Below are positions 1,058 to 18,411 of a DNA stretch of 64,000 nt, in pieces (the stretch's first letter is position 1; every line of letters starts with the position of its first letter). The translations under genes and the position numbers were made by a program. Location: contig CAVOKF010000006.1 in assembly GCA_963696385.1 (NCBI GenBank), forward strand, positions 96,001 through 160,000. Reading direction: 5' to 3'. The DNA comes from an uncultured delta proteobacterium (GTDB lineage Bacteria > Myxococcota_A > Polyangia > Polyangiales > Polyangiaceae). Under the pieces are notes generated by a model. The model ran no database searches. It worked only from the letters and a program-made list of their open reading frames with translations, and was not told where the DNA came from.

Positions 1058-1155
1058 CCGGTACGCCGTCGCGACTTTAGGCGAGTAGTTAGCCCAAAGC
1101 ACGTCGGTCGACGAAGAGCCGCGGAAGAGGGCGCGGAAACATATCGCGTCTTAGG

Positions 1156-3072
1156 CTGAAGTTCCTGAACCAAAATCGCCGAAGTTCGCGATCTTGCTGT
1201 GGAATCGGCAAAATTGACCCGAAATGTAGGCATGTACGACGATAGAAATAGCTTTCCATTATCGATTCGATGTGCATGATGCGGAGGCATGTACATCGCA
1301 ACCGTGCCGAACCGCGGCTCTCCACCGGCGATCCTGCTGCGCGAGTCGTATCGAGAGGGCGGACGGGTCAAGTCGCGCACGCTGGCGAACCTGTCGTCGT
1401 TGACGGAAAAGCAGGTGGAGGGGATGCGGCGAGCGCTCCGCGGGGAGCCCTTGTTTGGCCCGGACGGGCCGATCCGAAAGGTGCGCGACCAAAGCCACGG
1501 TGCGGTCGACGCCGTTCGGCAAGTCATTCGCAAGTTGGGGCTCGAGGTCCTCATCGACCGACAACCAAGCCGCCAGCGCGATCTGGTGATGGCCCTGTTG
1601 GTGGCGCGCATCACCGATGCCCAGAGCAAGCTCGCGACGACGAGGGCCTGGAAGACCACGACCCTGCCCGAAGACCTCGGGATCGCGGATGCGACCGAAG
1701 ATGACCTGTATGACGCCATGGATTGGCTCTTCGAGCGGCAGGACGCGATCGAGAAGAAGTTGGCGACGCGTCACCTGCGCCAGCAAGGGTTGGTGCTCTA
1801 CGATCTGTCATCGAGCTATTTTGAAGGACACCAATGTCCGCTTGCCAAGCTCGGATACAACCGCGATGGCAAGAAGGGCAAGCTGCAGGTCAACTATGGC
1901 CTTCTCACCGATGAACGGGGCTGTCCCATTGCGGTCCAGGTTTACGAGGGAAACGCATCCGATTCGACGACGCTCCTCGACCAGGTGGAGCGTGTTCGAT
2001 CCGACTTCGGGATTGACGGATTCGTGATTGTGGGTGACCGCGGGATGATCACGGAGAAACAGATTTCGTCGCTTCGCAAAACCGGTGGGATGACCTGGGT
2101 TACCGCGCTCAAGAGCGGTCGCATTCGATCCCTCGTGCACTCGGGCGTTCTGCAACTCGGACTCTTCGACGAACGCAATCTGTTTTCCGTGCGGGACCCA
2201 AAACTTGCCGGTGAGCGGTTGATCGCATGCAAGAACCACGATCTCGCACGATTGCGCGCACACAAGCGCCAGAGCCTTGTCGACGCGACACGCAAAGAAC
2301 TCGACGCGGTGCAGAGAATTGTGGCTCGCGGAAAGCTGGTGGGCAAAGCAGCGATCGGGCTACGGATCGGAAAAGTGATCAACAAGCATAAGGTGGCCAA
2401 GCACTTCTTACTCGACATCCATGATTCCACATTCGAGTATCGCCTCCGCGAGGATCGCATCGCAGAGGAGGCAGCACTCGACGGCGTATACGTGATTCGT
2501 ACGTCCTTGAGCCAAGAGTCGACCAGCGACGAACAGGCCGTTCGCCATTACAAGAAGCTCGCGAATGTCGAACGCGCATTCCGATCCATCAAGACGATCG
2601 ACTTGAAGGTGCGCCCCATTCACCACCACTTGGAAAACCGAGTCCGAGCGCACATCTTCCTGTGCACGCTCGCTTTCTACGTGGAGTGGCACATGCGCGA
2701 AGCGTGGCGACCGGTCCTCTTCTCGGACGAGGACCAGGCTGCCAAGAACACGAGAGACCCGGTCGCGCCGGCCACCCGGTCGCCCGGTGCACTCGATAAG
2801 GTCGCCACCAAGCGAAGCGAGGACGGGGCGCCCGTCCACAGCTTCCGTACCCTGCTCGCCGATCTCGCCACGATCACGCGAAGCACCTTCGCGCCCGTCG
2901 GAGCCGACAACGAAGGCCAGACTTTCACTATGCTGACCGTCCCGTCACCCGAGCAAGCGAGAGCCCTCCAGCTACTCGAAGCCATCGCCGTGTAGGCAGT
3001 AACTCAGGCCACGATTTCGACGAATCCAGGGAAAATACGCCGAATTGTGTCCCGGCGGGCGGGGAACTTCAG
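1156..3072 (+). mobile_element. IS1634-family insertion sequence
   Basis: Terminal IR CTGAAGTTCC / GGAACTTCAG, flanking direct repeat CTTAGG (1150-1155, 3073-3078), single transposase ORF. Confidence 0.9.
1289..2995 (+). CDS. IS1634-family DDE transposase
   Basis: Motifs 'LLRESYREGGRVKSRTLANLS', 'LYDLSSSYFEG', 'VGDRGM', 'YKKLANVERAFRSIK', 'RVRAHIFLC'. Confidence 0.92.
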   Translation: MYIATVPNRGSPPAILLRESYREGGRVKSRTLANLSSLTEKQVEGMRRALRGEPLFGPDGPIRKVRDQSHGAVDAVRQVIRKLGLEVLIDRQPSRQRDLVMALLVARITDAQSKLATTRAWKTTTLPEDLGIADATEDDLYDAMDWLFERQDAIEKKLATRHLRQQGLVLYDLSSSYFEGHQCPLAKLGYNRDGKKGKLQVNYGLLTDERGCPIAVQVYEGNASDSTTLLDQVERVRSDFGIDGFVIVGDRGMITEKQISSLRKTGGMTWVTALKSGRIRSLVHSGVLQLGLFDERNLFSVRDPKLAGERLIACKNHDLARLRAHKRQSLVDATRKELDAVQRIVARGKLVGKAAIGLRIGKVINKHKVAKHFLLDIHDSTFEYRLREDRIAEEAALDGVYVIRTSLSQESTSDEQAVRHYKKLANVERAFRSIKTIDLKVRPIHHHLENRVRAHIFLCTLAFYVEWHMREAWRPVLFSDEDQAAKNTRDPVAPATRSPGALDKVATKRSEDGAPVHSFRTLLADLATITRSTFAPVGADNEGQTFTMLTVPSPEQARALQLLEAIAV

Positions 3073-3182
3073 CTTAGGGGCTTCCGTTGTCACCGAGCGG
3101 CGAAAGATTGGATGGGGCGGCGGACGCGGGCGGGGACTGAACGAAGCGCGGGGCTACGACGGTACGAACGCGGAGGGTGCCC

Positions 3183-3272
3183 ATGGAAGCGATCTCACGG
3201 ACGATCCAGGTGGACGGTGCCGACATCTACGTCGCGGAGCGTGGGACCGGTGAGCCGCTCCTCCTGCATCAC
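3183..3272 (+). pseudogene. N-terminal fragment of an alpha/beta hydrolase
   Basis: 'IQVDGADIYVAERGTGEPLLLHH' matches the typical hydrolase N-terminus; similarity is lost after ~30 aa. Confidence 0.55.
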
Positions 3273-3614
3273 CGAACACCGCGACGACACGCGCAAGGAA
3301 GCGATCGAACACCAAGAGCTTCTTCTCGGGTCGCTTCGGGTCGGAGCTCAAATCGATTCGCCGTTCAGCGACGCTGGCCATACGGGACTGGCGCACCGTT
3401 ACCGGTCAGCGAAGACGCCGTCCGAACCCCTGCTTTCCCGACCCCGACCCCGACCCGCCAGTACGCCCGTAGCCGGACGCAATTCCTGCGGACGTCGGCA
3501 GATCGTTCGCGGAGTGCGGGCTCTGCGGAAAGCCGACCGCCACGAACGGCTCGCCCGATCGGGTCCCTCTCGTCTGCTCTCGCAGGCCCGACTCGTGCTT
3601 CGTTGCAGATCGAC

Positions 3615-4181
3615 ATGGCGCCGGGGCAGACGCGCACTCGCAAGGATCCGGCAGAGCGCGGCCACCTGCGTCTCTTCTACCGGGATTGGCGCCCTACGCG
3701 CCTCGGGCGGATCGTGAACGGAGCCTGGGCCTGGCTCTCCGGGATGGGCCTGACGTCGCAAATCTTGCTCGCACTGCAGGTGAGGGGCCGCAACACCGGT
3801 CTCGTTCGTACGACGGTACTCGTGCCTGTCGACTGCGATGGCCGGCGCTATCTCGTGTCGATGCTCGGCGAGGCTTCGGAGTGGGTGCGGAACGTCCGCG
3901 CCGCGGACGGAGAGGCCTTCATCAAGCGAGGCGCTCGCCGGCCGGTGCGACTCACCGAAGTGCCTCCTGGAGAGCGAGGTCCCATCCTCAAGGCCTACTG
4001 CCGCGTGGCTACCAGTGGGCGCCACCATTTCCCCGTTCCCGAGGACGCACCCCTCTCTGCGTTCGAGGAAATTGCCTCCGAGTATCCGGTCTTCCGCATC
4101 GACCCCGGATCGACCGTGACCCCAACTACCCAATCCCGACCCCGTGAACGCCGGCTGCCCCGCTTCCTGGCGGACCCGTGA
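3615..4181 (+). CDS. nitroreductase / deazaflavin-dependent oxidoreductase family protein
   Basis: 'LQVRGRNTGLVRTT', 'YLVSMLGEASEWVRNVRAA', 'YPVFRI' are typical split-barrel Ddn-like motifs. Confidence 0.75.
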   Translation: MAPGQTRTRKDPAERGHLRLFYRDWRPTRLGRIVNGAWAWLSGMGLTSQILLALQVRGRNTGLVRTTVLVPVDCDGRRYLVSMLGEASEWVRNVRAADGEAFIKRGARRPVRLTEVPPGERGPILKAYCRVATSGRHHFPVPEDAPLSAFEEIASEYPVFRIDPGSTVTPTTQSRPRERRLPRFLADP

Positions 4182-4344
4182 CTTCAAAGACGCTGCAGGT
4201 TCCGCGCAACCCGAAGAGGTCCTCCGGACAGGCACAGCCATCGAACGTCGAGCCACCGCCTTCCGACTCGGGGCTTGGTCGCCTTCCGGTGCCGGACGGC
4301 ACGACCCCGACCCCGACCCCCGACCCTTTTTTCCCGATCCGCCG

Positions 4345-4716
4345 CTACGGCCCCATGCCCGGGTCGAAGATCGGGCGCAACTCGGACTCGCCCTCGAACT
4401 CCGGCCAGTGCTTCCGGTGGAGCTCCATGAACTCGGTCGCGACGCGGATCGCTTCGGCTTTCGAGTCCGTCTGGAGGATCGCCCAGCCGCCGATGACCTC
4501 CTTCATCTCGGTAAACGGGCCGTCGGTCACGGTGAGCTTGCCGCCGGCGAGGCGGATGCGAACGCCCTCCTTGCTCGGGAGGAGCCCGCCCGTCTCGACG
4601 AGCGTTCCGTCCTTCAGGGACTTCTGGACGAACTGGCCCATCGCCTCCATGAGCGCGCGTGGCGGCCCGGCCTTTCGATACGACTCCGCGTGGCGAATGA
4701 ACGTCAGGTATTTCAC
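4345..4716 (-). CDS. YciI/DGPF-family protein
   Basis: 'VTDGPFTEMKEVIGGW' DGPF signature. Confidence 0.9.
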   Translation of the reverse strand: MKYLTFIRHAESYRKAGPPRALMEAMGQFVQKSLKDGTLVETGGLLPSKEGVRIRLAGGKLTVTDGPFTEMKEVIGGWAILQTDSKAEAIRVATEFMELHRKHWPEFEGESELRPIFDPGMGP

Positions 4717-5310: not shown

Positions 5311-6210
5311 CTACCCGGCCTCCTTCCTTCGCGTCAGCCGGTCGATTTGCAGCCGAATGTGCGCCGCTTCCGCCGGGGACTTGGCGAGGGCGAGCGCGCG
5401 ATCGAACGCCTCGCGCGCCTCGTCGCGTCGGCCGAGGTCCACAAGCAGAGCGCCGCGGACGCCGAAGAAGTAGAAGTACCCGGACAGGTCCTTTGCCAGC
5501 GCGTCGAGCATCGCCAGCGCCGCGGCCGGACCGCGCAGCTTGGCCACCGCGACGGCGCGGTTGAGCGAGACCACCGGCGACGGCTGGAGGCGCTCGAGCA
5601 CGGCGTAGAGCTGTTCGATCTCCGCCCAGTCCGTGTCTTCGAAGCAGGGCGCGCGCGCATGGATCGCGGCCACGGCGGCCTGCACCTGGTACGGCCCTGG
5701 GCGGGCGTGGCGGAGTGCCTTGTCGAGCAGCGCGAGGGCCTCCGCGATGCGGTCGCGGTCCCACAGGCCACGGTCCTGATCTTCGAGGAGAACGAACGCA
5801 CCCTGCGCGTCGAGCCGCGCCTTCGATCGCGAGTGCTGAAGGAGCATGAGCGCGTTGAGCCCGAGCATCTCGGGCTCTCCCGGAAACAGTCGGAGGAGGA
5901 GCCGGGCTAGACGGATGGCTTCGTCGCACAGCGGGACGCGCACGTGGGCGCCGCCGCCCGTCGCCGAGTACCCCTCGTTGAAGAGGAGGTAGAGGACGGC
6001 CGCCACGGCCGCCAACCGCTCTGCGCGCTCCGGCGCGCCCGGCGTCTCGAAGGGGATGTCCTCCGCGGCAACGCGGTTCTTGGCCCTTGTGATCGGCTGC
6101 TCCATCGCGACGTCGGTCACCAGGAACGCGCGGGCGATCTCCGGGACGGTGAGGCCGCAGACGATCCGCAACGCGAGAGCGATCTGCTGGGTGGCGAGAG
6201 GGCGAGAATG
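5311..6210 (-). pseudogene. 5'-truncated ECF sigma factor with C-terminal TPR extension (ECF42-like)
   Basis: 'ALALRIVCGLTVPEIARAFLV', 'YLLFNEGY', 'GPYQVQAAVAAIHA' plus neighbouring DGPF gene; region-2 half is absent. Confidence 0.8.
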
Positions 6211-6379
6211 TGCGCCGTACTCGGGCTCGAACCGTGGCTTCTTGCGCGGTTCGATATGTTGTTTCGGCAAACCGAAGCAAACGCTGAAGACGAGAGACGA
6301 GTCGCGCGCGCCTGTCGAGCCGAGCGTCGCCGGTCCTTGCGCTTGATCTCGACTCACGGCACATTGGTCAGCAAGGGAA

Positions 6380-7694
6380 ATGTTCCAAAGGCGGGTGCGG
6401 GTGATCACGGCCGCGATCTGGGTCGTTGCCGCCTTGGATGAATGCGGAGGACGAGTCGAGCCGAATGGCGGCACGTCGGCGTCGGAGTTGGAAGGCGGCG
6501 TGCTCGGCCAGAGCGTGGCAGTCAGCTCGACCCAAAGCAGTTCGGGCGCCACCGAGGCCGGTTCAAGCGGTTCCTCGGTCACGATCGTTTCAGGCGTAAA
6601 CGAAGCCAGTTCAAGCGCTTCCAGTTCGAGCGCTCTCAGTTCGGGTCCGTCGACTTCGAGTCGTTCCTCCGGTCCAGCAATCATCCCACCCAGCTGCCAG
6701 GTGGGCGGGCCGGGAATGACCGATTGCGGACCCGGGGGAAGCGGCAGCGAGAGCTGCTGCATGAGCTTGGAGGTTACGGGCGGGACCTATTACCGAACCT
6801 ACGATGAACCGATCGTGTTCGGCACGCCCGACGGCGGTCCGACCCTCGCCGCCGACGGAGGTCCCGCCGGGTTGGCCGACCCGGCGACGGTGAGTGGACT
6901 GCGCCTGGACAAGTATCTCGTGACGGTGGGACGGTTCCGGCAATATGTTAGCTATTTTAACGGGCCCTACGGGGGCGCCACCCGCGAACGGCAGCGGCAT
7001 CCATACGCACTTGAGTGGGGGCCTTGGACTGGCCAACAGCGCAAGCTCGGCGACGTACGAGACGGGCTGGGACGCGGCGGACTGGAACACGCAAATCGGA
7101 GCGGGGGCCCGCGCGGCGGGCACATGGAACACGAACCTGGCGTGTGGGGCGCCGGTCTTCCTGTCCAACGACACGTGGACGAGCACGGCGGGCGGTCAGG
7201 AGAACCTTCCGATCAACTGCGTGACTTGGTATGAGGCGTACGCGTTCTGTATTTGGGACGGGGGCTTTTTGCCGAGCGAAGCGGAGTGGGAGTACGTGGC
7301 GGCGGCGGGAAGCCAGCAGCGTGAGTATCCGTGGGGCTCGACGGATCCGGGGACTGCGAACCAATATGCGATTTACCAAGACTATTATACGGCCAATCTC
7401 ACCCACATCGCACCGGCGGGAACGGCGACACTGGGAGCGGGTTACTGGGGTCAACTGGATATGGCGGGGGAAGTCTGGGAATGGGCCTTGGATTGGTACA
7501 TGCCCTACGTGAATCCGTGCACAGATTGCGCCTTTGTTCCTACATCCTCCGTACCAGGAAACCCGAACCGGGTGATCCGGGGCTGCTCCTGGGGGAACGG
7601 TCCGGCAGGCCTCCTGCTGCCCCCTTGGCGCGACCAGATCGACCCGGCGACGCGCAGCGTTTCCACGGGGTTCCGGTGCGCGAGGACGCCCTGA
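6380..7694 (+). pseudogene. secreted FGE-sulfatase (SUMF1-like) domain protein, frameshifted
   Basis: N-part (6380 frame: 'CCMSLEVTGGTYYR', 'LDKYLVTVGRFR') continues in the 6945 frame ('LPINCVTWYEAYAFC', 'LPSEAEWE', 'DMAGEVWEW', 'GFRCAR'); shift near 6953-6960. Confidence 0.85.
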
Positions 7695-7722
7695 ACGCAA
7701 TCCGCAACTGCCGTGCGGCGAA

Positions 7723-7791
7723 GCCGTGCTCGGCGACCTCGACGAGTCGGGCAATCTGCGGGTGGGCAGCGCGCTCACGGCGAAGTACTGA
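7723..7791 (+). pseudogene. orphan 3' end of an SRPBCC-domain gene paralogous to 48178-48646
   Basis: Near-identical to the reverse complement of ~48178-48247; encodes ...DLDESGNLRVGSALTAKY*. Confidence 0.7.
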
Positions 7792-8066
7792 CGTTCGGAT
7801 CGCGGTTGCGCGCGAGCTCTTCGACCGCATCCGGTTGGACGCGGGCTTGCCTTAGCCATCGTATGTCGGGTCCCACGCGTCGCGCCCGTCTGTTACCGTG
7901 GACAACATCGAGCATCTTGGGAGGAAAGGTCGAACGATGATCCGGACAGACACGATGGCCCGCGCGAATTGTGGGATCGCCGCGCTCCCCGCAAGAAGCG
8001 TTGCGCGCGTTTCTTCGTTGAGAACGATCATCGGCTCGGCATCGGCGCATACCGTGCCGATCGACT

Positions 8067-9206
8067 TTACGGGCTGAGGGGCATAGCGGCCGGCAAGACG
8101 CACGTGTTGCCCACGCAGGAAGGCGCTATTTCGAGAGGGCAAGCGCACTCGCCAAATGCGATTCCGCTCGTGGCCTCTTCGTAGCGAGCCTGCTCGGCGG
8201 CATTCACGGGAGAACCGCCGCAGGCGCACTCCGAGCTGCAAACCTGTCCCGTAAGGATGACGATGCAGTCGGTCGCGACGACACACGATTGATCGTAGGT
8301 CGACAGATCGATGTCGACGCACAGGCCCCCGTCTGCCGCAGGAGGCGTGGTGGCCGCGTCGGCGCAGCCCGCAGGCTGAGTGCTTCCGGCCGCGCAAAGC
8401 GTGCACTGACCGGCCAGGCAGCGGGCTTCTCCCTGGAAGGCGCACGGGCAGCTCTCCAACTTCAAGGGCGCCGTATCGGACGCGAAGCGCGCGGCCGCGC
8501 CCGCGTTGACGGGCGTATCGCCGCATGAGCACTGGCCTATGCAGACTGCGCCCGAGCGGACGAGCTCACAATCTTGATCGCTGCCGCAGGTGAGGTCCGA
8601 TGGGGCCGGTTCGAAGTCGATGCACTGCGATCCCCCGTCGGTCGTCCCCGCGTCGACGCCCGAATCGGCGGTTTTGACTCCCGAGTCCCTGTCGCCTGCT
8701 TCCTCGACGCTGCCGTCCACGACGCCGCCGTCGGCTCCACCCTCCTTGGCCAATGGGGTGCCGGAGTCGGAGCAACCCGACGGCTGATTCGTGATGTCCA
8801 GCCCGCAAAGCGTGCACTGACCGGCTAGACAACGCGGTTCTCCGTCGAAGGCGCAAGGGCAGCTCTCCAAGTTCAAGGTCGCCGTATCGGACACGAAGCG
8901 CGCGGCCGCGCCCGCGTTGACGGGCGTATCGCCGCAGGCGCATCCGCCCTGGCAGACCTGCCCCGTGCGCACGACCGTGCAATCCTGGTCTTGCTCACAA
9001 ACCAAGTCGGCCGCGGTGGCTTCGAAATCAACGCATGCGGCACCGCTGTCGGTCGTGCCGGCCTCGGCGCCCGAATCGGCGGTTTGGGGTCCCGAGTCCT
9101 TGCCGGAGGGCGCTGCTGCGCTGAAAGCGTTGCCCCCACATCCGGCGCCAAGCCACGTCACGAAAAGGATGCGAGCGATGCGGTGAAGAGTGGCGGAGAG
9201 GGGCAT
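8067..9206 (-). CDS. Cys-rich repeat secreted lipoprotein
   Basis: Signal with 'AGCGG', internal duplication ('CGDTPVNAGAAARF..DTA.L.LESCPCAF.GE.RCLAGQCTLC' twice) plus a third degenerate unit. Confidence 0.8.
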   Translation of the reverse strand: MPLSATLHRIARILFVTWLGAGCGGNAFSAAAPSGKDSGPQTADSGAEAGTTDSGAACVDFEATAADLVCEQDQDCTVVRTGQVCQGGCACGDTPVNAGAAARFVSDTATLNLESCPCAFDGEPRCLAGQCTLCGLDITNQPSGCSDSGTPLAKEGGADGGVVDGSVEEAGDRDSGVKTADSGVDAGTTDGGSQCIDFEPAPSDLTCGSDQDCELVRSGAVCIGQCSCGDTPVNAGAAARFASDTAPLKLESCPCAFQGEARCLAGQCTLCAAGSTQPAGCADAATTPPAADGGLCVDIDLSTYDQSCVVATDCIVILTGQVCSSECACGGSPVNAAEQARYEEATSGIAFGECACPLEIAPSCVGNTCVLPAAMPLSP

Positions 9207-9441
9207 TGCCCGTGAACGGCAGCAAGATCAGCGCCACAACCTAGAGCGTCGGGAAAGAGCCTTTGAATCGTGGGTTCCCCGGCCGATGGCACAGTCGAAG
9301 TGGCGCAACATGGGCGCAACTGTCGCGGGGCTCGCCCCGTTGTTCCGTTCCGCGCGTCGTGTCGAGTGCGACGGTTTCCCACTCGCGTCGAGCGCTGTCC
9401 AAGCGGGAGCCGAGGTGATCACCCTTGCGCGCCGGGAACTT

Positions 9442-9680
9442 TTACCGTCGAAAGCGCCCGGGGGAAAAATGCCCTCGTCGACCCTCGTGAGCCCAAGCAG
9501 CAGCCGCCCAATGCCTGCCGGGCCGCTCGAGCTCCCAGCGCCCTCCGTACCACACGCGACCGCGCGGTCCCCATGCCCAGTAGCCGGGGATCCAAAAGTG
9601 ATTCGGGGACGGGCGAAGAGGGGCGACTTCCAGCCGGCGAGGGCCCCGGGGCCAGTAAGCGCCCGGGGCTACTCGACAAG
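9442..9680 (-). pseudogene. WXXGXW-repeat protein, 5'-truncated at the repeat
   Basis: 'FWIPGYWAW', 'VWYGGRW' repeats; the N-terminus runs into repeat copy 2. Confidence 0.65.
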
Positions 9681-9682
9681 TG

Positions 9683-9767
9683 CGTCGGTCGACGAAAAGC
9701 CGCGGAAGCGGGCGCGGAAACATATCGCGTCTTAGGGGCTTCCGTTGTCACCGAGCGGCGAAAGATT
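9683..9767 (+). repeat. oriIS-like repeat, copy 2 (outer ~20 nt missing or replaced; IS110 inserted at inner end)
   Basis: CGTCGGTCGACGAAAAGCCGCGG...GAGCGGCGAAAGATT directly abuts the IS110 left end. Confidence 0.88.
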
Positions 9768-9981
9768 AGATGAACCGGTGGCGGCGCGTCCTGGACCGCC
9801 CGGCACGCCGCCCGGCACGGGTGCCGCAGCCTCGAGATCGATCGCGGGGCGTCTCGAGAGCAGCCCCCGTGCCGGTCGTCGGTCATCGAAAATAGCGACC
9901 GACCTCCCGCTGGATTATCCATCCGACACCCCCGCGTGCTCAAAGGCACAAAGCGAAGTGGGGGCCGAAGGGAGATCGATC

Positions 9982-11133
9982 ATGCGGAGCATAGGATTGG
10001 ATCTTGGAGCGCGCCACATTGCGTATTGCGAGATACGGAACGGAGAGGTCATCGATCGGACCTCTGTGAAGAGGCTGGACCAACTCAAGTCGCGAATCGG
10101 CCCCGACTGTCCACCTGCGCGGATTGCGTTTGATGCGTCGCGTGAAGGATGGCACGTGCACGATACCCTCACGTCGTGGGGGCACGATGCGAAGATGATC
10201 GATACGACGCGGGTGCGTGCGATGGGCGTCGCGCATCACAAGCGCAAAAACGATGCTCTCGATGCTGAGGCGGCCGCACGTGCCGTAGACCAAGGACGGA
10301 TCCCCGAGGCGCACATTCTGTCTCCCGCCCGCCGAGCCCTGCGCGCGCAGTTGAGCGTGCGCGGCGCGCTGGTCGAAACACGTGCGCAGTATGTGACGAC
10401 GATACGCGGGCTCGGGCGCGCGGCAGGCGTGCTCCTTCCCACATGCACAACCGAGAACTTTGTGAACAAGGTTCGCGAGAGCTCGCTCGACGACGCGACG
10501 AGCACGCTCATCGCGCCGCTCCTTGCCGTGCTCGTCGGAGTCGAAGAAGAGCTCACCAAGGTCGAACGGACGCTTTCGGAAATGGCGATGCGTGAGCCCA
10601 TCACGAAACTTCTCGCCACCGCTCCTGGCGTCGGCCTTATCGTGGCGTCCACCTTCGTTTCGGTGATCGACGAGGCGAAGCGCTTTCGCAATGCGCAGGC
10701 AGTCGGAGCGTACCTTGGTTTGGTGCCGTCGGAGTTGACGACAGGCGGACCTGAAAAGCGGCGCCTGGGCTCGATCACCAAGCAGGGCAACACGTATGCG
10801 AGAAAAATGCTCGTCCAAGCGGCGTGGCTCATCCTCAGGTCACGCGACATGGACGACCCGATTCGCCAGTGGGGCGACCGCATCGCCAAGACGCGAGGCA
10901 AGAGAATCGCCGTCATCGCCATCGCACGAAAACTCGCCGGCGTCCTCTGGGCGATGTGGCGCGACGGCACCGCTTACGATCCGGTGGGACAGGCCAAGGC
11001 GAGCGCAAAGGGCACTCGCAGAGAGGCTCGTTCGAAAAACGCGAATGCGGAGGCGCTCGAACGCTCCGCCAAGAAACTCCAACGGCGGGCTCCTCGCCGC
11101 AACAAGATTTCGGAGGACGTCGCCATGACATGA
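9982..11133 (+). CDS. IS110-family DEDD recombinase
   Basis: 'IGLDLG', 'KRKNDALDA', 'APGVG', 'YLGLVP...GG', 'GSITKQGN', 'AIARKLA'. Confidence 0.93.
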   Translation: MRSIGLDLGARHIAYCEIRNGEVIDRTSVKRLDQLKSRIGPDCPPARIAFDASREGWHVHDTLTSWGHDAKMIDTTRVRAMGVAHHKRKNDALDAEAAARAVDQGRIPEAHILSPARRALRAQLSVRGALVETRAQYVTTIRGLGRAAGVLLPTCTTENFVNKVRESSLDDATSTLIAPLLAVLVGVEEELTKVERTLSEMAMREPITKLLATAPGVGLIVASTFVSVIDEAKRFRNAQAVGAYLGLVPSELTTGGPEKRRLGSITKQGNTYARKMLVQAAWLILRSRDMDDPIRQWGDRIAKTRGKRIAVIAIARKLAGVLWAMWRDGTAYDPVGQAKASAKGTRREARSKNANAEALERSAKKLQRRAPRRNKISEDVAMT

Positions 11134-11523
11134 ATCGTCACGACTGTCTCCGATGCGCCTTGAGCGCGTAGCCTAAGAGCACCCCATCTGGAGGAACGTT
11201 GAACGCGACAAATTGGTAGAAGCTCTTGCGATCTCCGCTCCGGTGGAGACGTGACTGTACTTCGTGCGAAAAATTGCGTCTCGTTCCACCGCTTCGAATC
11301 CAAATCTACGTCTCGGGCCTTGGACGCGAACTTCGCTGCCCGATGAACGTGAAGAGTCAATCGAGAGGTAGCTCGCCAAGCCGCGCGTTCGGAGCGCTCC
11401 CCTTACTGTCACCGTGCTCCGGCGCCCTCAAGCGCCGAGAAGGGAAACGTCCATTGAATTCTAAGAACCCAGCTCACTCCGAAACGAAAAAAAGAAAACT
11501 CTCTGCGCGAAAACCCTTGCCCA
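11134..11523 (+). ncRNA. putative bridge/seek RNA region of IS110 copy A
   Basis: Stem GAGACGT (11246-11252) / ACGTCTC (11308-11314) encloses GCGAAAAATT (11266-11275) and CCAAATC (11300-11306), matching the target halves; exact RNA ends unknown. Confidence 0.72.
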
Positions 11524-11548
11524 CGCCACCGGTTCAGAGTCCGATTTG

Positions 11549-11810
11549 GCGGCATCACCTTGCGCACTCGCCGTAGCCAGCCGCTACGTCTCGCGATCGC
11601 GGTCACCTGCTCCTCGCCGAGTACTTCCGTAAGCCGTTTCGCATACACGCCGACTCCGGCGCGTGTACTGTTTGATCCGTGCATCGGGGGTCTCCTTTCG
11701 CGTTGTCTCACAACAGCGTCTAGAGAATCCCCGATGCCTTTGACTATCCAATTCGTGCACTATGCACGTAAGTGATCGAGATCACTCGGGAAATAAAGAT
11801 CCTACCTATG
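11549..11810 (-). mobile_element. IS4-family fragment (left end plus transposase 5' part)
   Basis: Near-identical to ~13962-14223; ends in IR ...CCTACCTATG; truncated by the IS110/repeat junction. Confidence 0.88.
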
Positions 11811-11856
11811 ATCGCGTCTTAGGGGCTTCCGTTGTCACCGAGCGGCGAAAGATTTG
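11811..11856 (+). repeat. oriIS-like repeat, copy 3 (inner half; empty IS110 target site)
   Basis: ATCGCGTCTTAGGGGCTTCCGTTGTCACCGAGCGGCGAAAGATTTG followed by G. Confidence 0.9.
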
Positions 11857-11921
11857 GCCAGCCCGGGACGCGAACGCGCGGGCGCTTGATCTTTCCCTCA
11901 ACGGGTCCGATGCTAGCCGCC

Positions 11922-12122
11922 ATGACTGGCAGCCCAGTTCCGTCGTATGAGCACGAGGACTCACCCGAGGTGGCGGCCCTGCGTAAGCGCATCCGTGGCG
12001 AGCCGCTCTCAGCGGCGGAAGACGCCCTCCTCGCGTCCGCGACGCGCAAGCCGTCCGGGCCCGGTGTACTGCACGCCGAGGTAATGGCCGAGCTCGCCGA
12101 GCGCGAACGCCGCGGCGAATGA
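11922..12122 (+). CDS. putative antitoxin
   Basis: 66-aa ORF ending 'VLHAEVMAEL', overlapping the next ORF by ATGA; TTGATC-N17-GATGCT promoter-like motif at 11886-11914. Confidence 0.55.
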   Translation: MTGSPVPSYEHEDSPEVAALRKRIRGEPLSAAEDALLASATRKPSGPGVLHAEVMAELAERERRGE

Positions 12123-12337
12123 TCGTAGTTTGGGACGAGTCCGCCCTCGAGAGCTGGCGCCGCTTGTCGCTGAGCGATGCGAGGGCGGTCGCCGAGGCTG
12201 TCGAGCGATGGGCGCAGACGGGACAGGGTCTCGTCGTAGCCGTCGACGGGGAGTTCCAGCTCTTCGTCGGTCAACACGTCGTCGTGATGCTCGTGGCCCG
12301 CGATACGCTCTACATCGACCGCGTGCGCCGGGCTTAG
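12119..12337 (+). CDS. RelE/ParE-like small protein (putative toxin)
   Basis: 'MIVVWDESALESWRRL...GEFQLFVGQHVVV...LYIDRV' follows the RelE fold pattern, but the usual Arg residues are substituted. Confidence 0.55.
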   Translation: MIVVWDESALESWRRLSLSDARAVAEAVERWAQTGQGLVVAVDGEFQLFVGQHVVVMLVARDTLYIDRVRRA

Positions 12338-12747
12338 GCCCTCAGCAGCTCCGGGGGAGCCCTGCCGCCATCCGCCGGAAGCAGTATCGGCTTCGTGAAT
12401 GGTCAGTCGGCGTGTCTCAGCGCGTCCAACTTCCGCTCGGAGGCTCGCGCCGAATCGCGTTGATCAGTCGCCCGGCGAGGCGAAACGGGCGGCCCGAGCT
12501 GCTGCCCATTACGCTTGAAGGATGTGGTGCGAGCGATCCGCGCGGCGGTGCCCATGGCGCGCGGTTCGTGCAGGAGGCATCGCCGTCCTCTTGGCACTCG
12601 TTGCCTTGGCTGTTTCCGGCGCGGTCTACAACTGGTTGGCAGTTCGACATCTTCGCAGCATCTACCCGCCTCCGGGCGAGTAGGAAACGAAAAGCGTGTC
12701 GGGCGATGAAGAGTCGCCGAAACCACCGCGGTCACATATAACCCGTT

Positions 12748-14223
12748 CATAAGTTGGTACTTAGAGATTCGGGATGGCGCTCGCTATCACACAAGTGCGA
12801 GTGGCTCGAGGCCCATAGCGAGACGTCCGCGCTTTCGATCGCGAGCAGGATGAGCGCGGCGCGCGTTGGAATCGAGGAACTTGAGCGTTTCGGCGAGGGC
12901 ACGACGTAGTTGGCGCGGCGAGTCGAGAAGGCCGCGGAGGACATCGTCGAAGTAATGCTTGCCGGACGCGGCGGCTCGCTGGGTCGAAAGCTCCACCCCC
13001 AGCGACGCTTCCGCGAAGTGTGCGAGCGAGCGTTTCAGAAGGGCTGCGAGCAGGCTCGCCCATATCATCGCTTTCGCGATAGCGGCCTTGCCCGTATCGA
13101 AGGCATGAAGGTTGGCGTGGGATTTGAACTCTTTGAACAGGAGTTCCACCTGCCAGCGGAGGCGATACAAGCCGGCCACGTCGGCGGCGGAGAAGCGCTT
13201 GCGAGCGAGGTTGCTGTGCAGGTACACGAACGTCTTCGCGTTGCGCTTGCCGCGCTTGTAGATCGCCACAATTCGGCCGCGATACACGAATGAATTCGCC
13301 TGCCATTCGATGTCGAGATCGACCGTCTGGGCCGGAAGCAGGTCCCAGTTCAACTTCTGGCCGAGCAACTTGGGGATGGATTTGCCGGCGCTGTCGAAAG
13401 CGGCCCGAATGGTGGGTCGAATGTTTTTGGTTCCGCGGACGATGAAGGCGCCGCCCGCTTGGTCGACGTCGAAAAAGAATGTTCGCTCCTCGTACCCTCG
13501 GTCGGCCAGAAAGAGCCGCTCGCGAAGACTCGCGGCCTCGGGACGGTAGGTTCGCTCGGTCTCCTTGTCGGCCGTCAGGGCGACGATGCGCACATCGTCT
13601 TGGAGCAGACTCATCGTGACGTGCAGTTCCACGGCGGCAGGCGAGATTTTTGTAAAGCGGCCCGGCCATGTGCCTTTCAAGTCGTCCTTGAGCGCGAACG
13701 ACGTCCCGTCGTGAATGACGATGTCCCGAAAGGTCGACAGTTTGGGGGACACGGCGTGCAGAACCGGCTGGCTCATCTTCTGTACCGTCGCTTCCAGCAG
13801 CATCCGAAACATCTCTGGAAAGGACGCTTGCGCGAGCCGGTTGTGAAAGGGCTTATATCGCAGCGAAAGGCCCGCGAATTTCCGGAACGTCCGCAGAATA
13901 TCGGCCAACCACTTGGCGTGGCCCGACCCGAGCGTCGACAGCACCGCCACGACCATCGCCAGCGGCATCACCTTGCGCACGCGCCGTAGCCAGCCGCTAC
14001 GTCTCGCGATCGCGGTCACCTGCTCCTCGCCGAGTACTTCCGTAAGCCGTTTCGCATACACGCCGACTCCGGCGCGTGTACTGTTTGATCCGTGCATCGG
14101 GGGTCTCCTTTCGCGTTGTCTCACAACAGCGTCTAGAGAATCCCCGATGCCTTTGACTACCCAATTCGTGCACTATGCACGTAAGTGATCGAGATCACTC
14201 GGGAAATAAAGATCCTACCTATG
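12748..14223 (-). mobile_element. IS4-family insertion sequence
   Basis: Imperfect IR CATAAGTTGG / CCTACCTATG, 10-bp target duplication ATAACCCGTT (12738-12747, 14224-14233). Confidence 0.92.
12787..14097 (-). CDS. IS4-family transposase
   Basis: 'IHDGTSF', 'LADRGY', 'YRLRWQVELLFKEFKS' (YREK motif); AAAGGAG RBS upstream of ATG 14097. Confidence 0.92.
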   Translation of the reverse strand: MHGSNSTRAGVGVYAKRLTEVLGEEQVTAIARRSGWLRRVRKVMPLAMVVAVLSTLGSGHAKWLADILRTFRKFAGLSLRYKPFHNRLAQASFPEMFRMLLEATVQKMSQPVLHAVSPKLSTFRDIVIHDGTSFALKDDLKGTWPGRFTKISPAAVELHVTMSLLQDDVRIVALTADKETERTYRPEAASLRERLFLADRGYEERTFFFDVDQAGGAFIVRGTKNIRPTIRAAFDSAGKSIPKLLGQKLNWDLLPAQTVDLDIEWQANSFVYRGRIVAIYKRGKRNAKTFVYLHSNLARKRFSAADVAGLYRLRWQVELLFKEFKSHANLHAFDTGKAAIAKAMIWASLLAALLKRSLAHFAEASLGVELSTQRAAASGKHYFDDVLRGLLDSPRQLRRALAETLKFLDSNARRAHPARDRKRGRLAMGLEPLALV

Positions 14224-14299
14224 ATAACCCGTTAGGGGCTTTCGTGGTCCGTGCAACGGCGATTTGGCATCTCCCCGCCCATCTTAGGCTCACACGCAG

Positions 14300-14825
14300 A
14301 ACGCGTCTTGTCGATCGGTCTGCCGCGAGCACTGCCCCGCGCCTTGTGGAGCCGGCGCCCGCAAGGGATTGCGAGCGCTCTTCTTGCGTGTCCCGCGGCT
14401 GGTCGAGGAGCTCGGGGGCGTGCGCGCAGACTCTCGCGCCCATCGAAAAGATCGACGTGCTCGTACTCGACGACTTGTTGCTCACGCCTATGAAGGACGC
14501 GGAGCGCCGCGATCTCCTCGAAGTGCTCGAAGACCGTTACGACCGATGCTCGACGGTCATCACATCGCAATCACCGACCAAAAGTTGGCACGCAGCGCTC
14601 GGTGATCCGACGATCGCCGACGCGATTTGCGATCGCCTGGTGCACAACGCCCACGTGCTCGCGTTACGCGGACCCTCCATGCGGAAGAAGAAGGGCCTTT
14701 CGCCCAACCAGGAAACCGAACCCACCTGACCACCCCTCGTCGCTTCGCTCCGATCGTGATCGGGTGCGTCGGAACGGTTGATCGGGTCCGTCCGGAATGA
14801 GCGATCGGGTCGACCGGAATACGCA
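14300..14825 (+). mobile_element. istB: IS21-family remnant (istB 3' part plus right end)
   Basis: 'DVLVLDD...RRDLLEVLEDRY...STVITSQ...ADAICDRLVHNAH'; repeated GATCGGGT motifs and terminal ...CCGGAATACGCA. Confidence 0.85.
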
Positions 14826-14880
14826 ACCGACGTCGATCTCGGCGCCGAGTACGCCTACTGAACCCATCGCGTCGAGAACT

Positions 14881-14974
14881 CCAAATGGGACTCTGAACCG
14901 GCAGTGGACGCCCCTAAAACGCGATATGTTTCCGTGGCTCTTCGTCGGCCGACACGCTTTGCTTGTCCTATCCG
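14881..14974 (-). repeat. oriIS-like repeat, copy 5 (14910-14974, inverted) fused to ~20 nt of an IS110 right end (14881-14901)
   Basis: Reverse complement reads ...AAACATATCGCGTTTTAGGGGC-GTCCACTG-CCGGTTCAGAGTCCCATTTGG; outer end GCTTTGCTTGTCCTATCCG on +. Confidence 0.8.
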
Positions 14975-15773
14975 CCCATTGCGTATCCGGAAACGGGCAC
15001 ACCGCAGGGCGGGGTGATTTCGCCGATTCTGGCGAACATTTTCCTGCACGAGGTGCTCGACGTCTGGTTTGAGCGCGAAGTTAAACCAAGGCTTTCGGGC
15101 AAGGCGCTGCTCGTCCGCTACGCGGACGATGCAGTGCTTTTGTTTTCGCATGAAGTGGATGCCCGCAAGGTGCTGGACGTGCTGCCGAAGCGATTGGGTG
15201 CGTACGGCCTGGCGCTGCATCCCGAGAAGACGCGGTTGGTGGAGTTTCAGCGCCCTGACCGTCGCTCATCGAAAGTCGATGGCGGCGACCGAGGTCCTGG
15301 CAGCTTCGACCTACTCGGCTTCACGCACTACTGGGGCAAAGCTCGCTCTGGCAAGTGGATTGTCATGCGCAAAACAGCCAAAGACCGCTTCCGGAGAGCG
15401 GTGTCGCGGGTCGCGCAATGGTGCAGGGAGCACCGGCACGACGCCATCCGCGAGCAGCAGAAGGCACTTGGGCAAAAGCTGCGTGGTCACTACGGATATT
15501 ACGGAATCACCGGGAATTTCCGCGCCATCGCGCTCTTCTGCCGCAAGACTATTGCGTTGTGGCGCCGGTGGCTCAACCGCCGGTCGCAACGACGCCATAT
15601 GCCTTGGAAGCGAATGCGGCTTCTGCTGGAGCGCTACCCGCTCCCGCCGCCTCGCATCGCTCACCCATTTCTCCCGCGCGCAGCGAACCCGTGACCGAAG
15701 AGCCGGATGCGTGAATTGCGCACGTCCGGATCCGAAGGGGGGCCGGGGAGACAACCTCCCCGGCCTACCCGAC
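14975..15773 (+). mobile_element. 5'-truncated group II intron (RT/maturase 3' part to 15694, domains V-VI at 15700-15773)
   Basis: 'GTPQGGVISPILANIFLH', 'RYADD', 'FDLLGF', maturase 'LRGHYGYY'; DV GAGCCGGATGCG...CGTCCGGATC and 3' end CCTACCCGAC. Confidence 0.92.
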
Positions 15774-15861
15774 TGACAACGAGCGCCCCAAAGGCCTTTT
15801 ATGTGACCGCGGCGGTTTCCGCGTCTCTTCGTCGGCCGACAAGCTTTGCGCCGCCTACTCC
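15774..15861 (-). repeat. divergent oriIS-like repeat, copy 6 (inverted; forms the 3' exon of the intron)
   Basis: TGACAACGAGCGCCCCAAAGG...ATGTGACCGCGG...CTCTTCGTCGGCCGACAAGCTTTGCGCCGCCTACTC aligns with the reverse complement of the repeat. Confidence 0.78.
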
Positions 15862-15942
15862 CCCGACTTCTCGTGGTCCCGGCGTTGCTCACTTCTCGCT
15901 CTGCTCCGCCGTTCCAGCAGGTCGCTGGAGACCACGAGACCT

Positions 15943-16111
15943 GTTGCGGTAGGGACGGCCCTCGCCCTGAGGTTCGGGCCGCCCCCCGCGCGGATCCCGG
16001 CGTGCGGAACTACCGCACCGGGCTCTTGCCTTGGGTTCTGACGCGCATGGGCAGCGATGGAAAGTTTCAGCTTTCCTTGACCTCCTCTTTCCCCAAGCTT
16101 GCTTGGCGCAC
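15943..16111 (-). ncRNA. miniature, internally deleted group II intron (169 nt)
   Basis: Starts GTGCG, contains DV GAGCCCGGTGCGGTAGTTCCGCACGCCGGGATC and DVI ending CCCTACCGCAAC. Confidence 0.75.
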
Positions 16112-16124
16112 TGAAAATCCAGGC

Positions 16125-16310
16125 TAGCCGAGCCGGCACGCTCTGCGCGCCGATGGCATTCACGATCTGCTGCGCGGCCCACGCGGCGTACGGGTGCGCC
16201 GTCACGTTGACGTGAACTGGTCGCCGACCGCTTCCACGATGGGCACTCGATAGACGCCGGACTTGAGAGGACAACCTCCAGTCGCTCCTCGACCGCCCGG
16301 AAGGTCACAA
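16125..16310 (-). pseudogene. integrase-core (rve-like) transposase fragment
   Basis: 'HVNVTAHPYAAWAAQQIVNA' resembles the conserved HxNVTxHPTxxWxxQQ segment. Confidence 0.6.
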
Positions 16311-16497
16311 AACACCTTGCTTAGTCGAAGCACCGGCCATATAGTCCGCATGTAGCGGGGTGGAGCCCCAGGTGTCCGTTCCGCGGACGCGAAGGTGGCT
16401 CTGAAGGGCCATGCACACACGCTAAAAGACAATCATCAGTAGATGGGAAGATCGAAATTCCGGGTCACATCCAGCTAACCCGTATAGAGAGGCTACA

Positions 16498-17493
16498 ATG
16501 CGCAACCAGTGCTACGTGACGATCGCCACCGTATTTTTCGCGGCGCTCTTTGGCCAAGAGTCCTCTGCGTCCGCGTGCACCTGGGGGGATCCCAATTGCG
16601 AATGGGTCCAAATGAACAACCCCACTGGCGTGGACAAAAATAGCTTGATCGCCGTCAGCGTGAATTCGGGACCCAGCCAGAGTAGTGTATTCTATTTCGT
16701 GGCCACATCTACCGGCGTTTACGAGGGGATCGTCAGCACTCCCCAATTGAGCAGCGTAAATTGGGGCTCGGTGGGCACCCTTAGCGAATTTAACGAGTCG
16801 GATATGAGGCAAATCACCGCCGACAGTAATCCTGGTGGAGATCTTTACTTGATCGACAGCATCGGTAACCCTCTTTTTTACATAGTCAACGGCTCACTCG
16901 GCCAGGGCCCGAACTACAACCATGGCCCTATGGGCACCATTATTGGCATTAGCAGTGAGACCCCCTACGAGCCGGCTCCGGGTTACCCGTTTAAAGTGTG
17001 TCAATTTCCTACCGATATAGCCGTCGATGAAGAGTTGAATGTCTATGTTGTCGGCTGCGGCAACAACTCGTTTTGGGTCGCACCACATACGGGTTCCAAC
17101 ACCTGGGGACGGTGGGCCTCGTATGCCGTCGGAGGGGCTGCAAACCTAGTTGCCGTTGGAGCAAATGCGAATTTTGCGGAGCAGGGCCCATGGGTTGTCG
17201 ACGCAAACGGACTCACGTTTCAAGTGCAGTCGAACGGCAACTCCGCTGCAATTGCGCGGCCCGAGTGGATCAGCAACACTGCGCACTCAATCGGCGTGTA
17301 TGGTCAGAATAACCAGGCTACCGCGATTGGCGGGGAATCCGAAGTATGCCAATGGACCTCGGGGTCCGGGGGGGGGTGGAACTGCCCGTTTCTCGGTGGC
17401 CAATCAGTCCAAATATCTGTGCAAGGGTACACCGTGTTTGTCGAAAATTCGGCCAGCAACCTATTTACTTACTCGAACGACATCGTCTTTTAA
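16498..17493 (+). CDS. secreted hypothetical protein, possibly tectonin/lectin-like beta-propeller
   Basis: GAGG RBS, signal peptide, Trp/Gly/Asn-rich beta repeats ('DIAVD..LNVYVVGC', 'GPWVVDANG'); visibly lower GC than flanks. Confidence 0.65.
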   Translation: MRNQCYVTIATVFFAALFGQESSASACTWGDPNCEWVQMNNPTGVDKNSLIAVSVNSGPSQSSVFYFVATSTGVYEGIVSTPQLSSVNWGSVGTLSEFNESDMRQITADSNPGGDLYLIDSIGNPLFYIVNGSLGQGPNYNHGPMGTIIGISSETPYEPAPGYPFKVCQFPTDIAVDEELNVYVVGCGNNSFWVAPHTGSNTWGRWASYAVGGAANLVAVGANANFAEQGPWVVDANGLTFQVQSNGNSAAIARPEWISNTAHSIGVYGQNNQATAIGGESEVCQWTSGSGGGWNCPFLGGQSVQISVQGYTVFVENSASNLFTYSNDIVF

Positions 17494-17582
17494 CTAGGAT
17501 TGGCGTGCGAAGCTGCTGGCTCCGTGCGTCCTTGTGAATTCCCTTGGCGCTCTCGAGGGCCTGAAAACCAGGTCGTACACCA

Positions 17583-18105
17583 AATGGGACTCTGAACCGG
17601 TGGCGTGGGCAAGGGTTTTCGCGCAGAGAGTTTCTATTTTTCGTTTCGGAGTGAGCTGGGTTCTTAGAATTCAATGGACGTTTCCCTTGTCGGCGCTTGA
17701 GGGCGCCGGAGCACGGTGACAGTAAGGGGAGCGCTCCGAACGCGCCGCTTGGCGAGCTACCTCTCGATTGACTCTTCACGTTCATCGGGCAGCGAAGTTC
17801 GCGTCCAAGGCCCGAGACGTAGATTTGGATTCGAAGCGGTGGAACGAGACGCAATTCTTCGCACGAAGTACAGTCACGTCTCCACCGGAGCGGAGATCGC
17901 AAGAGCTTCTACCAATTTGTCGCGTTCAACGTTCCTCCAGATGGGGTGCTCTTAGGCTACGCGCTCAAGGCGCATCGGAGACAGTCGTGACGATTCATGT
18001 CATGGCGACGTCCTCCGAAATCTTGTTGCGGCGAGGAGCCCGCCGTTGGAGTTTCTTGGCGGAGCGTTCGAGCGCCTCCGCATTCGCGTTTTTCGAACGA
18101 GCCTC
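17583..18105 (-). mobile_element. partial inverted IS110 copy (recombinase 3' end, non-coding region, right end)
   Basis: Reverse complement of ~11023-11546 with a few SNPs. Confidence 0.9.
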
Positions 18106-18306
18106 CCACAGACGCAGAGGACCCGCTGCTGTGAAGAACGTTCTCTGCGCGCCATCAATGGAGGCGCAACGATAGCTGCTCTCCAAGTCTCTCCGGTGCG
18201 CCCTCGCCCGCAAAGTGATCGACGAGCCGATCGGCGAGGAGTGCGATCGTCTCACTCGTCACATCCTCCCCGAAGAGTGGGGCGTCGAGGAATCGCGCGA
18301 GCGCGG

Positions 18307-18411
18307 CGAGTAGTAAGCCCAAAGCACGTCGGTCGACGAAGAGCCGCGCAAGCCGCGGTGGAAACATATCGCGTCTTAGGGGCTTCCGTTGTCACCGAGC
18401 GGCGAAAGATT
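18307..18411 (+). repeat. oriIS-like repeat, copy 7 (IS110 inserted at inner end)
   Basis: CGAGTAGTAAGCCCAAAGCACG...GAGCGGCGAAAGATT abutting IS110 copy B. Confidence 0.92.

Follow-up and report, generated by a model that had tools for sequence, protein, structure and literature searches.

Why should a single short stretch of a bacterial repeat carry the insertions of four unrelated classes of mobile element? The question is raised by a 64,000-nt window of the genome of a peat-soil myxobacterium (C6:96001-160000, the whole stretch of DNA analyzed), which holds eight copies of a repeat module of about 115 nt with the layout GCGAGTAG ... CGACGAAGAGCCGCGG ... ACATAT-CGCGTCTTAGGGGC ... GTTGTCA ... 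GGCGAACCGATTTGR. The genome (G000) comprises 6.94 Mb at 65% G+C in 8 contigs, and the stretch is also present in public peat metagenomes. A preliminary description had proposed that part of the module is a shared landing pad for an insertion sequence (IS) of the IS1634 family, an IS4-family element, an IS110/IS1111-type element and a group II intron, and that an accessible hairpin of single-stranded DNA attracts them. All of the junctions that it named are present in the window, and the 46-nt string that it gave has 3 matches there with up to 3 mismatches, against 0 expected. Genome-wide, three of the four classes recur in the module at fixed nucleotides. Separate, sequence-guided targeting of an abundant and dispensable repeat by these three elements is the probable explanation, with IS1634 as an incidental visitor.

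The module was searched with a two-round nhmmer profile, which produced 91 hits covering 8,330 of 6,938,242 bases, or 0.12% of the genome. The hits are grouped in islands that make up 6% of the genome (416,978 bases), and modules constitute about 2% of the island DNA. Element ends were located across the genome by BLAST or regular expression, and their flanks were then read. The left ends of the IS110-type element lie in a module in all six cases, always after GGCGAAAGATT and in a single orientation. The intron junctions likewise fall in modules without exception (5′, 4/4; 3′, 3/3), again in a single orientation. For the IS4-family element, 14 of 30 termini detected by regular expression abut the module decamer, plus one variant terminus recovered by BLAST alone; both orientations occur, and the insertion sites number 10 in modules and 10 elsewhere. 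Only one of seven IS1634 left ends is in a module. The proposal of a landing pad shared by four classes therefore stands for three: the module is 0.12% of the genome yet a fixed-nucleotide target of the IS110-type element, the intron and the IS4-family element, and the IS1634 insertion does not recur. The three recurrent sites are all within the inner 45 nt of the module. The predicted features of the window on which this reading is built are as follows.

1080..1155, plus strand: module copy 1, 5′ part (C6:97078-97155, profile positions 3-80), ending in the duplicated CTTAGG (1150-1155)
1156..3072, plus strand: IS1634-family element (NF033559) with a 568-aa transposase (1289-2995) and inverted ends CTGAAGTTCC.../...GGAACTTCAG
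3073..3111, plus strand: module copy 1, 3′ part, CTTAGGGGCTTCCGTTGTCACCGAGCGGCGAAAGATTGG
9677..9767, plus strand: module copy 2, variant at its 5′ end (profile positions 21-111)
9768..11546, plus strand: IS110/IS1111-type element (NF033542), 1779 bp, alternative ends 9763 and 11540
11550..11810, plus strand: right-end fragment of the IS4-family element, its inner side joined to the TGG after the IS110-type element, its end abutting ATCGCGTCTT at 11811
11811..11859, plus strand: module copy 3, 3′ part, beginning with the IS4 target decamer ATCGCGTCTT
12675..12747, plus strand: module copy 4, 5′ part, with the decamer ATAACCCGTT at its end (12738-12747)
12748..14223, minus strand: IS4-family element (NF033592), 1476 bp, with a 445-aa transposase (12787-14124, minus strand) and a 10-bp duplication
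14224..14268, plus strand: module copy 4, 3′ part, beginning with the second ATAACCCGTT (14224-14233)
14881..14977, minus strand: module copy 5, with a 3′ tail matching the IS110-type right end and a 5′ end, GCGGATAG, fused to intron position 1153
14976..15773, plus strand: 3′ fragment of the group II intron (intron positions 1153-1950), with the C-terminal part of the reverse transcriptase (RT) reading frame and domains V/VI
15774..15862, minus strand: module copy 6 (profile positions 6-94), starting TGACAACG and acting as 3′ exon for the intron
18303..18411, plus strand: module copy 7
18412..20190, plus strand: second copy of the IS110/IS1111-type element
33109..33222, plus strand: module copy 8, intact, ending GATTTGAAC beside the transposase-proximal segment
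33288..34997, minus strand: ISCR/IS91-like Y2 HUH transposase gene, 569 aa (Pfam Y2_Tnp and Zn_Tnp_IS91)

The transposase of the IS110-type element matches Pfam DEDD_Tnp_IS110 and Transposase_20 and reaches 217.6 bits with NF033542 (cut-off 140). The subterminal inverted repeats of the element measure 11 bp (TGAACCGGTGG / CCACCGGTTCA), and its transposase gene is followed by 413 nt of non-coding sequence. According to the accessible portion of PMC11187229, a DEDD transposase, subterminal inverted repeats of 11-13 bp and a long non-coding region downstream of the gene mark the IS1111 group, the targets of which are chosen by a seekRNA. All three marks are found here, and the sequence assigns the element to the IS1111 subgroup of the IS110 family. 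Each of the eight right ends in the genome is followed by TG(G) and then by unique sequence. Among 31 genomes of the genus the left end was detected in two including G000, the other being one weak 82-nt match in G046; since the left end is nearly confined to G000, there is no cross-genome replicate of the left junction. The fusion of copy 5 to an IS110 end was confirmed, as its last 20 nt (GTTCAGAGTCCCATTTGG) match the right-end tail GGTTCAGAGTCCGATTTGG. Two modules, 14881-14977 of the window and C4:1135637-1135717, end in such a right end of about 20 nt including part of the subterminal repeat, and from their sequence these tails look like the remnant of a mostly deleted IS110 copy.

The exact insertion point of this element can be read in two ways. 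The preliminary description placed the insertions in copies 2 and 7 at GATT, and both elements do follow GGCGAAAGATT, with GATT repeated at both junctions if the insertion is placed after it. Alternatively, the element would enter 6 nt further left, between GGCGAA and CCGATT, in which case AGATT is the element's own left tip. The extensions beyond the subterminal repeats are 3 and 10 bp in the former reading and 8 and 4 bp in the latter, and those typical of IS1111 elements are 7 (or 6) and 3 bp. We lean toward the latter reading on three grounds. The right-junction bases between GAGT and ATT vary among near-identical copies (CCG, CA, CG), and the junction variants CCGATT, CGATT and CAATT parallel the variants ACCGATT, CCAATTT and AACGATT of free modules. 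The element occupies 6 of 12 modules ending in AAAGATT and none of 33 with the other ends, ACCGATT or AACGATT (hypergeometric P of about 1e-4, calculated by hand); the AAAGATT end is seen on four different module backgrounds. Finally, a module that is occupied in two peat metagenomes (X3 and X5, described below) is of the ACCGATT type in G000. If insertion does occur between GGCGAA and CCGATT, six AAAGATT modules that are free of the element, among them window copies 1 (3073-3111) and 3 (11811-11859), would be scars rather than inherited variants. The metagenome contigs break at repeats and none bridged an empty site, so they do not fix the insertion point.

Of the intron, the window contains 798 nt from the 3′ side, cut off by the 5′ end of copy 5 at intron position 1153. 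This fragment finishes in ...CCTACCCGAC at 15773 and is followed directly by TGACAACG at 15774, read on the opposite strand to the repeat, which confirms the junction with TGACAAC described earlier for copy 6. Two complete introns of 1,950 nt are present on C7 and C2, with exons that differ on both sides. They begin with GTGCG and encode an RT/maturase (TIGR04416, 335.8 bits; cut-off 300). The Rfam model Intron_gpII gives the window fragment 39 bits against a gathering score of 40. RVT_1 was the sole match in a Pfam search of the intron protein, and no endonuclease domain was found. A hairpin loop TTGAAA at intron position 220 can pair with exon bases -6 to -1 (TTTCAA), which gives a 6-bp match of exon-binding site 1 (EBS1) with intron-binding site 1 (IBS1), and CCGTC at intron position 193 can pair with exon bases -14 to -10 (GACGG) in a 5-bp EBS2-like match. 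By its GUGYG 5′ end, domain V/VI, RT/maturase reading frame and predicted EBS-IBS pairing the element is assigned to the bacterial group II introns. The site is constant, between ...TTCAA and TGACAAC. The exon sequence is restricted to the CAATTG subfamily of modules, and all five perfect free sites in the genome lie in modules of that subfamily.

The ends of the IS4-family element in the window are CATAAGTTGG... and ...CCTACCTATG; its inverted ends are CATAAGTTGG / CATAGGTAGG, and seven complete copies in the genome are flanked by 10-bp duplications. IS4 duplications usually measure 9-12 bp. With a DDE transposase (NF033592, 181.5 bits; cut-off 115), terminal inverted repeats and a duplication length in the family range, the sequence places the element in the IS4 family. 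Its insertion at the decamer in copies 3 and 4 was borne out, with ATAACCCGTT on both sides of 12748-14223 and the right-end fragment against ATCGCGTCTT at 11811. In modules the element duplicates profile positions 68-77 every time, which read ATCGCGTCTT or ATAACCCGTT depending on the module subfamily. Its duplications in and outside modules have the form A-N8-T, preceded by T and followed by A. Such a loose motif alone would not give modules 50% of the sites, hence a further preference or a survival bias must add to it; the extra preference could come from added sequence, from local DNA shape or from survival in junk DNA. In addition, a decamer, one nucleotide and a second decamer (ATCGCGTCTT-A-ATCGCGTCTT) follow each other in 5 of the 48 full-length modules (the set used for motif counts and folding), on five different module backgrounds. 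These otherwise intact tandem-decamer modules (C4:46565, C2:74010, C2:103536, C4:81330 and C7:1383984, with one more in the sister genome at locus L023) are probably IS4 excision footprints, judging from their sequence. One IS4-type copy outside modules, C7:1416005-1417480, sits in a site resembling the end of a tRNA gene (GGACTCGAACCTGCGACC...), with the duplication AGAAGGCCCT between CTTAG and CTAAG.

The IS1634-family element in copy 1 is flanked by CTTAGG at 1150-1155 and 3073-3078, the 6-bp duplication that had been reported. A large DDE transposase (NF033559, 327.8 bits; cut-off 100), inverted ends and a short duplication assign it by sequence to the IS1634 family. The junction is real, but the idea of a recurrent landing pad fails for this element: its duplications elsewhere are likewise nTTAGn, and since it uses such sites everywhere, its single module insertion is a one-off, incidental event. 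A second IS1634 copy lies inside the transposase-proximal segment of the ISCR-like element.

What, then, is the module? Copy 8, which had been described as untouched, is indeed intact and lies about 66 nt beyond the stop codon of the Y2 HUH transposase gene. A module precedes all seven intact gene-proximal segments in the genome; an eighth BLAST match is cut by an IS1634 end. The best NCBIfam match of the transposase is ISCR clade Ia with 285.9 bits (cut-off 925), followed by IS91 with 96.9 bits (cut-off 125), both below their cut-offs, and its sequence suggests a distant relative of the ISCR/IS91 family. Homologues of the gene occur in 21 of 41 genomes, a tally that includes one genome flagged unpublished, the sequence of which underlies none of the conclusions. 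In other genomes, elements with transposases of 46-69% identity show a palindrome, a CTTTGG-like motif, G[GTC]TC and about 100 nt ending CCTAC..CC, with quite different intervening sequence. All 12 loci compared (2 from the genome itself) have the CTTTGG-like motif followed by G[GTC]TC, and a C[CT]TAC... terminal motif lies 97-100 nt further in 6 of 12 by regular expression (2 own, 4 foreign), and in one more by eye. Since the module co-varies with the transposase across relatives, it belongs to the origin side of the element: it is the outer module, of about 115 nt, of the origin-side end of an ISCR/IS91-like rolling-circle element. Most copies have no transposase gene, and about 80 stand alone with both borders exact. 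Their outer flanks display a weak [CG][GA] preference only, and three known junctions end ...ATGG, ...GGGG and ...GCAG. A target tetranucleotide of the GTTC/CTTG type was not found directly outside the origin end; GTTC or GGTC is at the inner border instead. The CTTTGG-like motif with G[GTC]TC (window 33222-33290, loci L033-L043) coincides with the end point of solo modules, and may act as an internal stop that produces them. No clean empty site for the module itself was found, all junctions with known elements being one-sided.

Other identities were considered for the module and rejected. An ISCR-like element inserting beside a pre-existing repeat at GAAC was suggested by 7 of 7 junctions falling directly after G(A/C)AC, with the adjoining modules of different subfamilies; this idea was dropped because divergent homologues elsewhere carry their own segment of about 110 nt with the same geometry. 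The module is not a coding end or a gene start, as frames ending at its TAG or leaving its reverse strand are short and without frame bias (25, 26 and 20 of 70 with at least 80 aa in the three frames). Nor is it an attC site or an Rfam RNA: the best integron integrase match (TIGR02249) has 68.5 bits against 265, and the intron was the sole Rfam match in window positions 1-40000. In the sister genome (G003, a fragmented assembly of 330 contigs) at least 21 module matches are present, and neither an ISCR-like transposase match at E <= 1e-40 nor the IS110-type left end was found in these contigs; either modules outlive the transposase or the repeats are unassembled. In runs X3-X6, from four peat metagenomes of four studies, the summed word depth of the module at window 18305-18405 exceeds that of the unique flank 13- to about 50-fold. 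This depth is not a copy number, and indicates that the module family is abundant in those communities too.

The insertions in the modules are independent events. The six modules bearing the IS110-type element differ in sequence and in upstream flank, and all eight right flanks differ. The IS4-family element occupies modules of several subfamilies at two different decamers. In the sister genome, modules carry IS4 at the same decamer, one tandem-decamer footprint, and the intron at the same site. There, the module sharing its upstream flank with C4:1139750 of G000 bears IS4, while the G000 module bears the IS110-type element next to an intact IS4 site. Contigs of the peat runs X3 and X5, which belong to two other studies, join an IS110-type right end to TTCTCGAGCGCAACCC..., the flank of module C2:106574, which is unoccupied in G000. 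That host modules and flanks differ, and that an orthologous module has taken IS4 in one genome and the IS110-type element in the other, establishes the independence.

We propose that the inner 45 nt contain three separate address labels, each of which would be read independently by one unrelated site-specific element. The IS1111-type, RNA-guided recombinase would insert at ...GGCGAA(A)/(CC)GATT followed by TGG, GATT meeting TGG at the site. The intron, with its protein free of an endonuclease domain, would home by EBS-IBS pairing between ...GGGACGGCGCTTTCAA and TGACAACG on the opposite strand, in one module subfamily only. The IS4-family DDE transposase would make a 10-bp staggered cut at T/A-N8-T/A (cuts at the slashes) in ACATAT[ATCGCGTCTT]AGG. 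Convergence would then come about since the best safe target available is a sequence that is present in many copies, can be spared and changes slowly, with no common structure attracting the elements. Guide-RNA and EBS pairing would be the causes of specificity, and selection for a safe haven that of the convergence. Several observations weigh against this proposal, the excess of the IS4 preference over its loose motif among them. Matches between the target and a candidate seekRNA/bridge-RNA guide in the IS110-type non-coding region are no more frequent than in shuffles (one 7-mer against a mean of 1.1); the guide candidates CCAAATC (position 1533) and GCGAAC (1559) have the order expected for IS1111, but they are no better than chance and were set aside. 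The outer 67 nt of the module contain none of the three sites, which are all confined to its inner 40%; by our own arithmetic this has a chance of about 0.06, and such confinement is not predicted by a model of purely independent addresses. The concentration of elements and modules in islands inflates the enrichment about 17-fold, which falls short of the observed level. Furthermore, the counts are drawn from one assembly plus one fragmented relative.

It was also conceivable that structure, rather than sequence, brings the elements together, if rolling-circle transposition or replication were to expose the module in single-stranded or hairpin form. The intron protein, for which RVT_1 is the sole Pfam match, agrees with this, and RmInt1-type introns without an endonuclease rely on replication-fork DNA. 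The module is moreover part of a HUH rolling-circle element, the active intermediate of which is single-stranded (accessible portion of PMC13181058). Nevertheless, the folding of the modules speaks otherwise. As single strands the 48 modules fold no better than dinucleotide shuffles (mean z of -0.64 on the plus and -0.52 on the minus strand, with z below -2 in 3 of 48 per strand), and four single-copy folds gave z of -2.17, -0.77, -0.15 and -0.20. RNAalifold with DNA parameters returned an empty consensus structure, and a scan for stacked pairs detected invariant short runs only and no covarying helices. The arms named in the preliminary description, AGCCC and GGGCT, occur in 20 and 11 of 48 modules, respectively, and coincide in 6, approximately as independence gives. 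The only recurring pairing, and one that favors a structural role, is a 5-6 bp stem bracketing the intron site, present in 20 of 48 modules as GTTCG...CGAAC (15) or GGCGCT...AGCGCC (5). The two orientations of IS4 and its 10-bp duplication are as expected for a double-stranded target, and IS110-family recombinases, in the parts of the literature available, pair their RNA with both strands of duplex DNA. A structural hub is thus quite improbable, and the hairpin claim and its arms find no support here. Survival alone, with elements inserting broadly and lasting only where the DNA is junk, the module making up much of it, is very improbable. The concentration of modules and IS copies in the islands fits it, as does IS1634 with its sites everywhere; identical nucleotide positions, the single orientation of two elements and the complete module occupancy of the IS110-type element and the intron do not, nor does the small share of modules in the island DNA.

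Another possibility, raised in the preliminary description, is that the parasites hitch-hike, so that a few insertions were multiplied by rolling-circle copying from the outer end of the module and the occupied modules are copies of one another. All insertion sites do lie inward of the first 67 nt, leaving the outer end intact; units of module plus flank have been duplicated, as for window 11860-12674 and 5989-9244; and at C8:879967 and C4:1146399 the module halves are identical and IS4 points the same way, whereas the outer flanks differ. Yet the IS110-bearing modules are mutually different in all six left contexts and all eight right flanks, IS4 is found in two decamer types and both orientations, the occupants of orthologous modules differ between genomes and populations, and the IS110-type element is in none of the six transposase-linked modules that reach the end of the profile. 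Hitch-hiking is accordingly unlikely and gains no support. There is a small chance that the module serves as a vehicle for hyperparasites and that, in addition, the IS1111-type element rewrites module ends. Insertions would be tolerated only in the inner 45 nt if the outer 67 nt are the working origin, and copying past a displaced inner stop would carry a resident IS or intron to new sites. With rewriting, a departing IS1111-type element would leave its first five bases, turning ...AACCGATT into ...AAAGATT, and the 6 free AAAGATT modules would be its scars. Separate targeting by sequence remains the reading that we prefer.

The modules are also found at the seams of rearranged DNA. Their borders often abut, on one side only, internal positions of the IS4, the IS110-type element, the intron or the ISCR-like body, with junctions between ...G and GCGAG on the 5′ side and after GATTTG(G) on the 3′ side. 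An 815-bp segment (window 11860-12674) is 99.8% identical to C4:1023240-1024054 and starts exactly at the inner end of a module. Similarly, 3.26 kb (window 5989-9244) are 99.5% identical to C7:1425804-1429057, directly after the module at C7:1425692. Exact borders, one-sided junctions and duplicated segments together indicate that modules also mark mosaic seams. Host element and parasites are each nested within the other. The 3.26-kb duplicate begins inside a sigma-factor/DUF6596 gene, and within it a 379-aa reading frame on the minus strand (8067-9206), with no Pfam hit, contains a 411-bp internal tandem duplication (8393-9105; 83% and 73% identity). Between copies 4 and 5, positions 14175-14729 hold a fragment of an IS21-type IstB helper (Pfam IstB_IS21, profile positions 140-234), the sole copy in the genome by tblastn. 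Five composites (C6:58617, C7:94376, C6:48182, C2:119448 and C2:75329) consist of the first ~70 nt of a module, then TAATAGGCGATT... and a common segment of about 95 nt leading to the next module.

The closest parallels come from other repeats that attract mobile elements. Integron attC sites are the targets of IS1111-attC elements and group IIC-attC introns. As in attC, short repeated sites associated with a mobile element are hit at fixed positions by an IS1111-type element and a group II intron, with one orientation each; unlike attC, there is no integron integrase passing its cut-off and no conserved fold, the associated element is of the rolling-circle type, and a DDE element, IS4, is a third regular visitor. 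IS4321 and IS5075, of the IS1111 family, have the terminal repeats of Tn21-family transposons as insertion sites, and so target the end of another transposon as here, although that host is a Tn3-family and this one a rolling-circle element. Repetitive extragenic palindromes (REPs) are palindromic host repeats linked to RAYT transposases. Tobes and Pareja (2006, PMC1525189) describe REPs and bacterial interspersed mosaic elements as abundant extragenic hot spots that attract several IS, highly target-selective members of the IS110 family among them. The module shares this abundance and these visitors, whereas it is not palindromic, forms no stable hairpin, is an ISCR/IS91-like end and receives an intron as well. 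It resembles the oriIS of ISCR/IS91 elements in its place downstream of a Y2 HUH transposase gene, in a subterminal palindrome near the gene and in the G[GTC]TC tetranucleotide, with a non-coding origin side of about 180 nt here and 232 bp in ISCR1 (accessible portions of PMC13181058 and PMC6218425); it differs in having GTTC at its inner border and not outside the element, and in the ~80 solo modules with exact borders. No paper describing ISCR/IS91 origin modules as the target of IS1111-type elements or introns came up in full-text searches of the open-licence literature.

The hot spot is real and well supported, and its principle is already known from REP and attC, with no new mechanism. 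An RNA-guided recombinase, a retrohoming intron and a DDE transposase that meet on one 45-nt stretch of a fourth mobile element form a compact natural case. With about 90 near-identical targets in one genome, occupied, empty and scarred states can be compared, so that the module is a useful system for studying how site-specific elements select safe targets and hold on to them. The IS1111-type element also provides a defined natural target for guide-RNA work. Finally, the module helps explain how IS-rich islands become mosaics.

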